Of a stretch of DNA of 64,000 nt, positions 7,510 through 44,471 are shown piece by piece. The notes below the pieces were generated by a model, which worked only from the letters and a program-made list of their open reading frames with translations, ran no database searches and had not been told where the DNA came from. The translations under genes were made by a program, and so were the position numbers. Source of the DNA: Firmicutes bacterium UBA3738 (lineage in GTDB: Bacteria > Bacillota > Clostridia > Peptostreptococcales > Anaerovoracaceae). Numbering within the stretch: the first letter of the stretch is position 1; each line of letters opens with the position of its first letter. The DNA lies in assembly GCA_002372505.1 (NCBI GenBank), contig DFGY01000062.1, positions 28,322-92,321 of the forward strand, written 5' to 3'.

Positions 7510-7658
7510 TCTATGGAACGCTCCTTATTCCGCTCGGCGAAGCCCGCTGCTGCCCGCCGGCCCCAACCCCAGCCGGCGAAGGCAGCTATAGAGCGAGGCT
7601 GAGCCGTAAGCGGAATCCAAGAGCCCAGTTGAGGGCGATTGGATATGCATTGCCAAAC

Positions 7659-27647: not shown

Positions 27648-27785
27648 GAAAAACAGGGGTAATTAGGGGGTATATTATGGATTTCCGCCAAAATGAAAAA
27701 TCCTCGGAACGCTTGAATTTCCAAGGATTTTTTTATGGTCGGAGAGACAGGATTTGAACCTGCGGCCACCTGACCCCCAGTCAGG
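27648..27785 (-). repeat. att-like copy C: the 3' 50 nt of tRNA-Pro (27736-27785, identical) plus a copy of its terminator/flank
   Basis: 27736-27785 is identical to 44395-44444. 27648-27735 is near-identical to 44307-44394. Confidence 0.9.
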
Positions 27786-27821
27786 GTGAGACCGTCGTGA
27801 TTTCAATGCTTTCAGCGATTG

Positions 27822-27856
27822 TTTCCACCACGATTTCCACCACAGTTTCCACCACT
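27822..27856. repeat. Three direct repeats TTTCCACCAC (period 12-13), arm-type-site-like
   Basis: Copies at 27822-27831, 27834-27843 and 27847-27856, 36 nt right of core copy C. Confidence 0.8.
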
Positions 27857-28014
27857 AAATTTTTCCAAATGTATAAATATGCGCGATTCCGGATAGTGCA
27901 AAGCGATCTCTACATTAGCGATTTTAATAATATGCAGTAAACATCAGCTTACCAATTACACTAAGCATTCCATTTCTATTTCAAATACATATGAGTCGCT
28001 CATCAATATCTATA

Positions 28015-29640
28015 TTAAAATCTAAAGGGCTCTTTTTTACGACCAGCCGCAAAATCGATTTCTTCGAAAAGAGCGCGACATTTTTCATATTGCGATAGCT
28101 TCAGTTGTTCTATAACATCATCGACATATTTTTCACCATGTTCGAGTTTTATCAATCCCTTAATATACTCTGCTGCCTCATGATAGATTTTTCTGCTTTT
28201 TTCTCCAGTAAGCGAAGAAAAGAAACTATTTGTAAAAAACTTTTTCAATTCAGGCTCATACTTCTCTGCAAGAAAATCTACATTTCTTATTATTTCAAAT
28301 CGACTCCCTTTCTCATTAAGCAAATTGAACAGCTTTTCTTTTTCGTCAGTGAATCTATACAACGTTACCAGATGGCCAAGATTTTTCGTGAGCTTTTCTA
28401 TTCTTTTTTCACATTCTGATAACCAGCCTGCATCCTTTAAATGTTGCAGCGGAACTGTATCATTATTGTTCAGATAATCATATAAATAGTACTCTTTCAA
28501 GATTTCTTTATCACCACATTTTTCATACAACTTATTTAACAAGAATGGAATGTACTGTTTGTTGTATAGTGGTTTTTTATTTATTTCTTTCGATATGGCA
28601 CAATAAAGCCCTTTGACATCAGGTGCACTCTCTATGCAAAAGCAGATATACTCTTTGTACTTTGCATTTTTGATCATAGTACTTACCATGTCATCCATTT
28701 CGGGCTTTTCAATAATGCAAATTGCAATAAGCACATTTGATTTTGGGCACGTATTTCGAATCCCCATTGATTTCAAACGAGCGAACCGATCATTCAAACC
28801 GGTTACATATTGTTTCTTCTGTTCTTTGGATAAATGCTTTGATAAATGCTCTGCGATCCATCGATAATCATCATACACCGCCAGATCATCTTTCATGAAA
28901 AGTTCATTCAAATCGCTTCTATATTCTTTATTTCTCCATAGAGATGATATTTTTCTCTTTTCCACATCGCTTAGCATAGGCTGAGAATAGTCTTTCCATT
29001 CACTGTCATTATCTCTCTGTAGAAGGATCAAGCGAGAATTCAGTTTGTCTAATAGAACACTGGCTCCATTTTTATTGCCGATAAATTCTGAATACCTATG
29101 CTTCAGATATTTGTTGAAAGTCTCTTTTTTGTCTTTCATCAATTCAACACGAAGAATCATCCTTAATTCTTCCGGTGTCATATTGTCTAGAAAATCATCC
29201 AGTAGCTCATCATAATACAAAATGCCAAATCCTTCATTCAACAATTTTGTCAGAGAACTATTACAAATCCTGCTCTTATCCAGTGAATATTCCATTTCTC
29301 TTTCTTCTTCATAATAGTCATGGTTGGTCTCCCTGCAATCATCATAGTCTTCATAATAGTCAGCCTTTTCCGGAAAGGCGGCCATCCATAATGCTGCCAT
29401 ATGCTTGCACATATTTCCGCTTTCCGCATACGGACAATCACAACTGGATTTAAGTGGTTCATTTATTTTAATTGTCACTGAATAGGGCTTGTCTTCGCTT
29501 CCCTCAACCAGTCCTTTGTATTCATAAGTATCTGTTTGCTCTATTTCCAGCACAAAATCGCGAGAATAATAATCATATCCTCTGGCTACGATTCTTTCAT
29601 CAAAGTAACTCATATAGCTATTGACTTTTTCTTTGGTCAT
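28015..29640 (-). CDS. SWIM zinc-finger domain protein (541 aa)
   Basis: N-terminal CDCPYAESGNMCKHMAALW (CxCxnCxH SWIM signature). The rest is helical and K/E/Y-rich. RBS GGAGAG. Confidence 0.75.
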   Translation of the reverse strand: MTKEKVNSYMSYFDERIVARGYDYYSRDFVLEIEQTDTYEYKGLVEGSEDKPYSVTIKINEPLKSSCDCPYAESGNMCKHMAALWMAAFPEKADYYEDYDDCRETNHDYYEEEREMEYSLDKSRICNSSLTKLLNEGFGILYYDELLDDFLDNMTPEELRMILRVELMKDKKETFNKYLKHRYSEFIGNKNGASVLLDKLNSRLILLQRDNDSEWKDYSQPMLSDVEKRKISSLWRNKEYRSDLNELFMKDDLAVYDDYRWIAEHLSKHLSKEQKKQYVTGLNDRFARLKSMGIRNTCPKSNVLIAICIIEKPEMDDMVSTMIKNAKYKEYICFCIESAPDVKGLYCAISKEINKKPLYNKQYIPFLLNKLYEKCGDKEILKEYYLYDYLNNNDTVPLQHLKDAGWLSECEKRIEKLTKNLGHLVTLYRFTDEKEKLFNLLNEKGSRFEIIRNVDFLAEKYEPELKKFFTNSFFSSLTGEKSRKIYHEAAEYIKGLIKLEHGEKYVDDVIEQLKLSQYEKCRALFEEIDFAAGRKKEPFRF

Positions 29641-29664
29641 TTTTTCTCTCCAGAAGATTTGTTT

Positions 29665-30972
29665 TCAATCTTTCAAGCATCCTACAGGAATCACTTTTAC
29701 TCCATTTTCTGTTGTATAAGCCATTGGAGCATTCCCACATATTATGATAAGGAGCGATGGCTCTCGATATTCTATCCCCGGATGCGCTTCATTCAACCTG
29801 GCCTTTTCATTATGTTCACGTATAACCTTAGTAAATTTTATCAAGTTCTCTTCCGCTGCCGGCACAGCATTTGATCCTGTTTTTATTTCAATCAAGGCAT
29901 AACGCCCATCGTTTAACTGCAGTACTGCATCTGCCTCAAGCCCATTGCTGTCGCTATAATGCATCAGTCTGGCATCGTGTGCTTGTGCAAAAACAAGAAG
30001 GTCCCTAAGCACCATATTTTCGAAGGCATGACCAAACAAATCAAGATCATTATTAAAATAGTCCGGAGATACACCCAACGAAGCCAGCGCGATAGACGGA
30101 TCAATGAATATATGCTTCTTTGCAGCTCTAATCGATGTCTTTGAACGTATTTGTGGTGTCCATGCATCGATATCCTTTAATACGAATAATTTTTCAAGAG
30201 CTGTAATGTATGACGAAATTGTGACATCCGACATGTCATGATTTGACCGAACATCCGAATATATATTCTTTCTCTTCGCAAGTGTTGCCATATTTCTGGC
30301 ATAAGACCAAATAATCGTCCTAGCCCATTCCTGATTTCGTTTCACATCATCGATCGTACTAATATCCTTTAGATATATTTGTTTAAAATAATCTCTTGCA
30401 ATTTCAAGCTTTGACGCATCCGAAGAGAGCGCCAGGCATCTTGGCCAGCCACCCCTGCAGACCGCAAAAAACAACTCCTCTAACTTTGTATTACACTTCT
30501 GCCCATCAATAATAAAGTCTTCATCGTCAAACAGTTTCTTCAACGAAATCGAGCCATTCGATTCTCCTGTCTCATACAAGGTCATTGGATACATCATAAT
30601 ACTTGTAATCCTTCCGGTGCCTGTATGCGGTGTATCCACATCTTTGCTGGTTGAACCTGTAAGATAGTATTCCCCAACAGACTCCGGCTCATCATCACAA
30701 GCTTTTCTTATCGCGCCCCATATTTTAGGAGCATCTTGCCATTCATCAAAAAGAATTGGCTTTTCATTATTCAAAAATAGTTTGGGCGAGGTGTTTGCAA
30801 CAGCCAGATAGCCTTCTCTCCTTTCTTCGTCCTGAAACTCTATAATTGTCTTGCAGCGTTCCTGTGAAGTACGCGTCTTGCCGCATCCTTTTGGCCCAAT
30901 TATATTTATCGCATTAAACGCTTCTTTTTTCTTATCGATCTCTGAATCTACGATTCTTCGTATATAGTCCAT
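29665..30972 (-). CDS. AAA_14-type ATPase with a C-terminal DUF4143 (PD-(D/E)xK-like) domain
   Basis: Walker A GPKGCGKTR, Walker B ILFDEWQD, C-terminal DGRYALIEIKTGSN (D..ExK-like). Confidence 0.8.
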   Translation of the reverse strand: MDYIRRIVDSEIDKKKEAFNAINIIGPKGCGKTRTSQERCKTIIEFQDEERREGYLAVANTSPKLFLNNEKPILFDEWQDAPKIWGAIRKACDDEPESVGEYYLTGSTSKDVDTPHTGTGRITSIMMYPMTLYETGESNGSISLKKLFDDEDFIIDGQKCNTKLEELFFAVCRGGWPRCLALSSDASKLEIARDYFKQIYLKDISTIDDVKRNQEWARTIIWSYARNMATLAKRKNIYSDVRSNHDMSDVTISSYITALEKLFVLKDIDAWTPQIRSKTSIRAAKKHIFIDPSIALASLGVSPDYFNNDLDLFGHAFENMVLRDLLVFAQAHDARLMHYSDSNGLEADAVLQLNDGRYALIEIKTGSNAVPAAEENLIKFTKVIREHNEKARLNEAHPGIEYREPSLLIIICGNAPMAYTTENGVKVIPVGCLKD

Positions 30973-31035
30973 GCACTTTCATTCTCCCTTTCATATGTCT
31001 ATTATTCCACAGACAAGGCGAAACATCAAGTTGTG

Positions 31036-31106
31036 TTTTGTGTTTTTCGACTATTTTGTTTTGTGTTTTTCGACTATTTTGTTTTGCGTTTTTCGACTAT
31101 TTTATT
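31036..31106. repeat. Three tandem 23-bp direct repeats (TGTGTTTTTCGACTATTTTGTTT) upstream of the ATPase gene
   Basis: CGACTATTTT occurs at 31048, 31071 and 31094 (period 23). Confidence 0.85.
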
Positions 31107-31150
31107 TTGCAAGTTGTCAAAGTAGGTTTTCCAAGGATTATTGATGGCCT

Positions 31151-31252
31151 AAGAGACAGGATTGGCAGCCTGCGGCCACCTGACCCCCAGTCAGTACTTA
31201 GTTGCTTATTTTTCAATGGCTATACGGTTTATGGCAACCTATATGGCAACCT
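31151..31252 (-). repeat. att-like copy E: degenerate tRNA-Pro 3' fragment plus type-2 arm (TATGGCAACC x2)
   Basis: AAGAGACAGGATTGGCAGCCTGCGGCCACCTGACCCCCAGTCAG, followed by TACTTAGTTGCTTATTTTTCAATGGCTATACGGTTTATGGCAACCTATATGGCAACC. Confidence 0.8.
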
Positions 31253-31428
31253 AATAATTGACGGAATTATCAAATGCTTATTATGTTGATTATTATTGAA
31301 TTGACAGCATCCAAAATCAAATGATTCAAATTCAACCTATGCAAAATACACAAAGAGAACAAAAGGACATGGTACAAACAGTATTTCTATAAAGTGCGTT
31401 TACAAAAAAGTAAAATAGCATGACAGAA

Positions 31429-35966: not shown

Positions 35967-36145
35967 AGGGGGGTATATTATGGATTTCCGTCAAAAAGAA
36001 AAAACCTCGGAATGCTTGAAATTCCAAGGATTTTTTGATTGTCGGAGAGACAGGATTTGAACCTGCGGCCACCTGACCCCCAGTCAGTACTTGGCTGCTT
36101 ATTTTTCAATGGCTGCACGGTTTATGGCAACCTATATGGCAACCC
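35967..36145 (-). repeat. att-like copy B: terminator-flank copy + tRNA-Pro 3' 47 nt (36041-36087) + type-2 arm (TATGGCAACC at 36123 and 36135)
   Basis: Direct alignment to 44320-44441 and to the arms of copies D and E. Confidence 0.9.
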
Positions 36146-36187
36146 GTGTTTTCAGTCGAACAATACTCAAAACCTTGTCATATATAT

Positions 36188-36938: not shown

Positions 36939-37051
36939 CTCGTTTCCCTCCATTACTTGATTATATAGCATTTATTTACCCTGCACAATTACTATGATTT
37001 AGAAACAAGCAAAAACCCTTGGAAAAAGTACATTTTTCAACGGTTTTATTC

Positions 37052-37158
37052 TGGTCGGAGAGACAGGATTTGAACCTGCGGCCACCTGACCTCCAGTCAG
37101 GTCTTGGCTGCTTATTTTTCAATGGCTGCACGGTTTATGGCAACCTATGTGGCAACCC
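37052..37158 (-). repeat. att-like copy D: tRNA-Pro 3' 50 nt (one mismatch) + type-2 arm
   Basis: 37052-37101 matches 44395-44444 except for the T at 37092. The arm TCTTGGCTGCTTATTTTTCAATGGCTGCACGGTTTATGGCAACCTATGTGGCAACCC follows. Confidence 0.9.
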
Positions 37159-37200
37159 GCCATGTTTGTGCAGATTGGAATATCCTTATATCAGGAATTG

Positions 37201-44394: not shown

Positions 44395-44471
44395 TGGTCG
44401 GAGAGACAGGATTTGAACCTGCGGCCACCTGACCCCCAGTCAGGTGCGCTACCAAACTGCGCCACTCCCCG
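44395..44471 (-). tRNA. tRNA-Pro (anticodon GGG), CCA encoded
   Basis: Folded by hand as a 77-nt cloverleaf. Acceptor CGGGGAG/CTCTCCG, D arm GCGC-AGTTTGGTA-GCGC, anticodon arm CCTGA-CTGGGGG-TCAGG, variable TGGCC, T arm GCAGG-TTCAAAT-CCTGT, then A-CCA. Confidence 0.92.

Follow-up and report, generated by a model that had tools for sequence, protein, structure and literature searches.

Do two genes that share a small tRNA-linked cassette form one defence system? This question is raised by a locus of Firmicutes bacterium UBA3738, in a stretch of 64,000 nt of contig DFGY01000062.1 (the window; all coordinates without a prefix are positions in it). Here, a gene encoding an ATPase-nuclease with AAA_14 and DUF4143 domains and a gene encoding a SWIM zinc-finger protein lie between two partial tRNA-Pro copies (attachment, att, copies C and E). 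An initial annotation had proposed that the pair is a compact two-gene defence module. Our analysis favours another explanation, which we consider likely: two accessory genes, independent of each other, came to lie side by side in an integrase-less islet that was acquired horizontally and is flanked by tRNA-Pro att copies. Each gene is individually of the defence-island type but, as judged from genomic neighbourhoods, the pair is not conserved and the partners do not co-evolve as a clade-wide pair.

The descriptive part of the initial annotation was confirmed. The two co-directional genes are alone between copies C and E, 24 nt apart, with no further open reading frame (ORF) of at least 120 aa. 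The ATPase retains the Walker A (GPKGCGKT) and Walker B (ILFDEW) motifs and the D348...E361-I-K363 motif (ALIEIKTG). The second protein has a canonical SWIM finger followed by a helical stretch. The interpretation of the two genes as a single module was not upheld, as described below.

Co-occurrence of SWIM and DUF4143 genes

Co-localisation of the two families elsewhere had been named beforehand as the test of the module. Among 151 genomes of the same order, no adjacency of SWIM and DUF4143 genes was found outside the window's own genome. These genomes harbour 59 SWIM-domain places (in 50 genomes), the commonest SWIM proteins being SWIM-SNF2 helicases (ORFs of approximately 1,080-1,110 aa), and the 50 SWIM-bearing genomes include 91 DUF4143 places (in 22 genomes). 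Outside the window's genome, two SWIM places were located within 10 kb of a DUF4143 gene (G096:C4 at 5.8 kb and G029:C84 at 8.7 kb). About one such place is expected by chance (a rough estimate from copy number and genome size), and consequently there is no indication of enrichment.

The pair was also sought at 56 loci encoding full-length members of the SWIM family. These loci, taken from metagenomes and GTDB genomes, belong to uncultured gut Bacilli and Clostridia and include one Anaerovoracaceae metagenome-assembled genome (MAG). A hidden Markov model built from nine divergent ATPases (the eight DUF4143 paralogues of the window's genome and the L012 protein) detected a DUF4143 gene within 10 kb in only one of the 56 loci (L012). 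Even there, the two genes are not adjacent, as an MNT-like gene and an Abi_2 gene lie between them. A tblastn search with the ATPase against all of the SWIM loci returned nothing, missing even the Pfam-annotated DUF4143 gene of L012, because the sequences are too divergent. Moreover, the SWIM gene was a neighbour of the ATPase gene in none of the three closest-homologue contexts analysed (see below), and the upstream neighbours of the SWIM family fall into 24 different protein clusters.

The ATPase gene and its leader

Pfam recognised AAA_14 (PF13173, 4.6e-14, residues 20-134) and DUF4143 (PF13635, 6e-32, residues 202-365) in the ATPase. The PADLOC profile of PDC-S01 (PDLC04790) matched it with an E-value of 1.9e-57 over residues 1-383 (profile positions 8-385 of 422). 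PDC-S01 (COG1373) has the same two Pfam domains in one polypeptide of approximately 400-450 aa, and the window ATPase matches its profile along the full length with the catalytic residues intact. This sequence match adds the ATPase to a candidate family that was already known and catalogued. The initial annotation did not recognise the pair as a named system, which is only partly correct, the ATPase being a named candidate. NCBIfam has no model for either protein.

PDC-S01 has been described as the fourth most common prokaryotic defence candidate, a single gene combining an ATPase with a PD-(D/E)XK nuclease, with validation pending (PMC12988326). In rumen genomes it is the most frequent individual locus (PMC13356809), and DUF4143 belongs to the PD-(D/E)XK superfamily (PMC3424549). 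Our literature search on AAA_14 in defence found nothing relevant. At E<=1e-60, at least 7,944 proteins of this very large family were retrieved, compared to 34 for the SWIM protein in the same database. Many homologues are 71-86% identical to the window ATPase and are distributed across Lachnospiraceae, Eubacterium and Spirochaetales. An alignment revealed that its motifs are common to most of the eight paralogues of the genome.

We analysed the contexts of three of the closest homologues (75-86% identity). The gene of P0038 (86% identical, locus L092) is followed, 68 nt downstream, by an att copy and then by an IS30-like remnant and a CoA-transferase gene. P0042 (77% identical, locus L093) is encoded in an element resembling an integrative and conjugative element (ICE), between a tyrosine integrase and ParA/ParB. 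P0061 (75% identical) is solitary among housekeeping genes. In these nearest relatives PDC-S01 is therefore a stand-alone gene, as the three contexts have no common neighbour; the window locus differs in having a SWIM-solenoid gene 24 nt behind the ATPase gene.

The extent of the nucleotide homology defines what is conserved. The window is homologous to L092 (80%) and L093 (71%) from position 31109 to position 29665/29667, a block composed of three 23-bp direct repeats, the promoter and the ATPase ORF, which ends at the ATPase stop codon. Because the homology stops there, the mobile and conserved unit, as far as the alignments indicate, is the ATPase gene with its leader, and the SWIM gene is outside it. 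The repeats (core CAAAAYAAAATAGTCGAAAAA) are directly upstream of the promoters of these 77-86% identical PDC-S01 genes (L092:165-250 and L093:4768-4850, in addition to the window), that is, in three unrelated genomic contexts. They are a feature of this sub-family that distinguishes it from PDC-S01 in general. The possibility that they are binding sites linked to the SWIM protein was rejected, since they travel with the ATPase gene and not with the SWIM gene. We consider them a candidate operator or UP-like element of the ATPase gene, rather than an att or iteron feature.

The att copy downstream of the L092 gene (L092:1676-1769) is of the same variant as copy E of the window. This copy, from a different metagenome, is a partial tRNA-Pro half that carries GCTGCCAATCC/GATTGCCAATCC and follows CATTGCCAT-like repeats. 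As this copy adjoins an ATPase-only gene, the att family accompanies the ATPase without the SWIM gene.

A further observation concerns the ICE-like backbone of L093. The slot occupied there by the 77%-identical PDC-S01 gene (L093:6754-9358) is occupied in a related backbone (L001:5700-8908) by the closest SWIM homologue together with an AlbA_2 ATPase and a 90-aa protein. Behind the slot, both backbones encode a 46-aa ORF, a protein of approximately 180-207 aa, ParA, ParB and a SpaA-type adhesin. The comparison of the two sequences indicates a cargo hotspot with swappable defence genes.

The ATPase data also bear on the alternative that neither gene is related to immunity, in which case the DUF4143 ATPases would be a multi-copy family of selfish or housekeeping genes, and the SWIM gene would be unrelated cargo. 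The eight DUF4143 paralogues in a 2-Mb genome, the location of P0061 and the pending experimental validation of PDC-S01 (PMC12988326) are compatible with this alternative. However, PDC-S01 was defined by its embedding in defence islands (PMC12988326), the ATPase occupies cargo positions of ICEs and att cassettes, and Abi, toxin-antitoxin (TA) and PDC genes dominate the SWIM-family neighbours. We therefore consider this alternative very unlikely.

The SWIM-solenoid protein

In the SWIM protein, Pfam recognised the finger alone (residues 53-84, 2.5e-5; CxC-x8-CxH). Its residues C67, C69, C78 and H80 are invariant across 31 family members. In the AlphaFold2 model (predicted local distance difference test, pLDDT, 83.8), an N-terminal beta/SWIM module is followed by a disordered linker (approximately residues 100-145) and about 400 aa of helical repeats. 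The linker is acidic and rich in Asp, Glu and Tyr. Neither Pfam, the model nor Foldseek revealed a recognisable catalytic domain. Foldseek against the PDB gave only a generic resemblance to ARM, HEAT, TPR and importin-like folds (best E-value 8e-3, template modelling score approximately 0.2), with no functional lead, and a sequence profile search against the PDB gave no match. At the level of a predicted structure, the combination of finger, acidic linker and solenoid suggests that the protein is a scaffold for binding nucleic acid or protein, not an enzyme.

Full-length family members are rare: 34 clusters in a set of 5.8 billion proteins, and about 30 representatives in a set of 1.84 billion proteins at 50% identity. 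Thousands of other proteins, most of them short, are related through the N-terminal module alone. No full-length homologue was found in GenBank phages, PLSDB plasmids or IMG/VR; phages and plasmids gave matches to the N-terminal finger only, and IMG/VR gave no relative. The idea of a phage or plasmid gene was consequently dropped. No literature tying the SWIM zinc finger to phage defence systems was found.

The closest catalogued family is PDC-S62, a single-gene SWIM defence candidate of PADLOC. Its N-terminal SWIM-finger module of approximately 100 aa is common to the window protein (7.3e-10) and matches 29 of the 31 family members (best E-value 4.7e-12), and the lengths are similar (541 aa compared to 566 profile positions). 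However, only profile positions 16-118 of 566, approximately, can be aligned, while the C-terminal solenoid of about 400 aa is unmatched, and the same is true of the 29 family members and of the remote homologues. Since only the finger module aligns, the window protein is, on sequence comparison, assigned to a family distinct from PDC-S62. The partial matches L061-L089 were rejected as true PDC-S62 members, as they are short SWIM-only proteins (105-273 aa). The SWIM-SNF2 helicases (Bacillus subtilis YwqA type) and the short stand-alone SWIM proteins have the same N-terminal CxC..CxH finger, but the window protein has an alpha-solenoid instead of the helicase domain.

Neighbourhoods of the SWIM-solenoid family

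The gene immediately upstream of the SWIM gene was co-directional with it in 41 of the 42 non-identical contexts. The gap had a median of 47 nt and did not exceed 50 nt in 21 contexts. The upstream neighbours include AbiLi/AbiLii (1e-97 and 6e-22), AbiEi/AbiEii, Abi_2, RhuM/PDC-S05, PRiA4/DUF6933/PDC-S63, PemK, Fic with SocA, NUDIX, GNAT, DUF285-LRR and PBECR4, and also a Schlafen/AlbA_2-HATPase_c_4 ATPase accompanied by a 90-aa protein. A large serine recombinase (LSR) was found upstream in 18 of the 56 loci, adjacent in 15 (gap of 7-36 nt) and separated by cargo in three.

Partner exchange was evident even between close relatives. In the maximum-likelihood tree, the window protein grouped with L001-4 and L013 (support 100/100), and this clade has three different upstream partners: PDC-S01, AlbA_2 with the 90-aa protein, and PDC-S63. 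Very close SWIM proteins elsewhere in the family also differ in their upstream partner.

A SWIM-solenoid protein acting as a partner-agnostic sensor or adaptor, with a swappable upstream effector (PDC-S01 in the window), might produce this pattern, and the pair would then be functional though unconserved. The orientation and short gaps described above agree with it, as do the upstream genes, which are mostly toxin, NTPase or nuclease-type defence genes, and the protein itself, whose modelled architecture is purely of the binding type. Nevertheless, several partners are complete on their own (AbiEi/AbiEii and AbiLi/AbiLii), others are not defence effectors (LSR, GNAT, NUDIX and DUF285-LRR), some loci have gaps of 185-938 nt, and close ATPase homologues lack the SWIM gene in three independent contexts. 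Overall, we consider an adaptor role unlikely. A broader version, that the SWIM-solenoid family, and possibly SWIM proteins widely, are inert recognition or regulatory scaffolds placed as the last gene of defence operons and small recombinase elements, appears similarly doubtful. Under that version, the window gene may encode a repeat-domain sensor supplied in trans to the PDC-S01 ATPase-nuclease.

The loci with an adjacent LSR (L009/L058, L025-L027, L030, L033-L038, L046, L047 and L056) have an LSR of approximately 520 aa at a near-fixed gap, and in about 11 of the 15 a Fic gene is located just before the LSR. In L009/L058, the LSR and SWIM genes and a 58-aa ORF are all that lies between the Fic and sortase/SpaA genes. 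In L010 (2426-8037), a 5-kb element composed of a 51-aa ORF, LSR, AbiEi, AbiEii and SWIM genes splits a Mn-catalase (CotJC-type) gene next to cotJA/cotJB. The N-terminal catalase fragment ends at 2650 and the C-terminal fragment starts at 7648, 28 nt past the SWIM stop codon. From the sequence, a sporulation gene here appears to be interrupted by a skin-like element with defence cargo aboard. Downstream of the SWIM gene, a convergent 112-aa ORF with no Pfam match is conserved in nine loci (including L005, L006, L008, L014, L016, L017 and L055), and in L005/L006 a 784-aa AEP-TOTE/ResIII/DEAD protein is inserted between the two.

These recombinase loci raise another alternative, in which the SWIM-solenoid protein serves the mobile element (as an att-proximal end-binding, directionality or maintenance factor) and the ATPase is ordinary cargo. 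The frequency and near-fixed spacing of the upstream LSR, the minimal LSR-SWIM unit of L009/L058 and the interrupted catalase gene of L010 all point in this direction, and in the window, too, the SWIM gene comes last and lies next to an att copy (C, 171 nt away). Yet approximately two thirds of the SWIM loci have no LSR, many of them with 10 kb of upstream sequence available, and in some loci cargo is also present downstream of the SWIM gene (L005). The window att sites are of the tRNA type, which is typical of tyrosine integrases, and there is no LSR or integrase nearby. The absence of full-length homologues from the phage, plasmid and IMG/VR collections also argues against this alternative, to which we assign a low probability, below that of the adaptor.

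The att-flanked islet

The features of the locus are summarised in Table 1.

Table 1. Features of the ATPase-SWIM islet and of the tRNA-Pro att array in the window.
Feature	Position	Strand	Remarks
att copy E: partial tRNA-Pro 3' half, variant GCTGCCAATCC, plus GGTTGCCAT direct repeats	31129-31253		Upstream boundary of the cassette
Three tandem 23-bp repeats, AAAACAAAATAGTCGAAAAACAC on the coding strand	31031-31109	(-)	Directly upstream of the -35 box
Promoter-like site: TTGATG, 17-nt spacer, TG-AATAAT; then ribosome-binding site (RBS) GAAAGGGAG	31001-31029	(-)	Consensus match only
435-aa AAA_14 + DUF4143 (PD-(D/E)XK) ATPase, PDC-S01 type (P0001)	29665-30972	(-)	
24-nt intergenic spacer with GGAGAG RBS, without terminator	29641-29664	(-)	
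541-aa protein: SWIM finger + acidic linker + alpha-solenoid (P0002)	28015-29640	(-)	Rare Bacillota family
att copy C: partial tRNA-Pro 3' half, preceded by three GTGGTGGAAA repeats	27719-27843		Downstream boundary
Intact tRNA-Pro(GGG)	44395-44471	(-)	Anchor of the att array
Two more partial tRNA-Pro(GGG) 3'-half copies	36022-36146 and 37035-37159		

The cassette region has a GC content of 34-40%, compared to 45-55% in the flanking core genes. The 3.3-kb cassette DNA and the SWIM protein were both absent from 30 relatives (three sharing the genus, 15 the family and 12 the order), and therefore the cassette is accessory DNA. The other inter-att cassettes encode a C11 peptidase, a zeta toxin and ABC transporters. 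No recombinase gene was found in any inter-att cassette, no Resolvase or Recombinase match among the ORFs neighbouring the window's SWIM gene, and no tyrosine integrase anywhere on the contig. The 2.0-Mb MAG has 13 PF00589 matches on other contigs, none shown to be cognate to the att sites.

Short direct repeats precede each att copy (27860-27895 and 31215-31250 in the window): GTGGTGGAAA three times at copy C, and GGTTGCCAT(A) twice at copies E, B and D. These repeats resemble arm-type binding sites of recombinases, one kind at copy C and another at the other three copies.

The islet resembles the att-flanked cis-mobilisable elements (CIMEs) described at tRNA genes. Like them, it contains no recombinase and lies between direct partial copies of the tRNA that have arm-like repeats, and the same att variant also flanks an ATPase-only cassette in another metagenome. 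It differs in that its contig has no cognate integrase; any mobilisation of the islet would be in trans.

No terminator-like hairpin was seen in the 24-nt spacer between the two genes, and no strong promoter specific to the SWIM gene was detected. Given the short gap, the shared strand and the lack of a terminator, the two genes are probably co-transcribed here.

Discussion

We propose that the locus results from the juxtaposition of two independent genes. The first would be a self-contained PDC-S01 unit formed by the three 23-bp repeats, its own promoter and the AAA_14-DUF4143 ATPase. According to its domains, this protein would act alone as an ATP-gated PD-(D/E)XK nuclease on nucleic acid; its anti-phage role is a prediction of the catalogue. 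The second gene, encoding a SWIM-solenoid binding protein, would have landed behind the ATPase in the islet, where read-through from the ATPase promoter probably drives its expression. Elsewhere, its family appears to ride as the last co-directional gene behind many unrelated genes (LSR, AbiL, AbiE, Abi_2, RhuM/PDC-S05, PemK and Fic). We infer the biochemical activities of both genes, and any role that they have in defence. The link to defence made by the initial annotation survives for each gene separately, through the membership of the ATPase in the PDC-S01 candidate family and the defence- and TA-rich neighbourhoods of the SWIM family, but not for the two genes as a single module.

Three points weigh against independence. 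First, the features that predict an operon in the window (24-nt gap, shared strand and no terminator) mean that a lineage-specific functional coupling may exist. Second, the SWIM protein is unlikely to be an effector on its own, because it has no catalytic domain, and it may need some partner. Third, the window's own genome has a second DUF4143 gene 0.8 kb from a SWIM-SNF2 helicase gene, a proximity that we treated as island clustering. This second locus (G000:C17:5209-10988) comprises, within 6 kb, a 1,218-aa SWIM-SNF2 helicase (plus strand), a 237-aa gene and a 450-aa DUF4143 ATPase (both on the minus strand).

The pair is not a new compact defence system and has no place in lists of two-gene candidates. 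Instead, the locus offers a clean example of an abundant candidate, PDC-S01, moving as a self-contained unit, which includes a conserved 23-bp repeat leader that is likely its control region. The presence of the same att variant around an ATPase-only cassette elsewhere supports the view that these integrase-less islets are exchangeable units. The locus is unusual in one respect only, namely the positional behaviour of the SWIM-solenoid family. The analysis defines this rare family, whose members are almost always the co-directional last gene behind diverse defence, TA and recombinase genes. Should this last-gene rule have a functional basis, the family would be a candidate for a generic accessory of immune operons.

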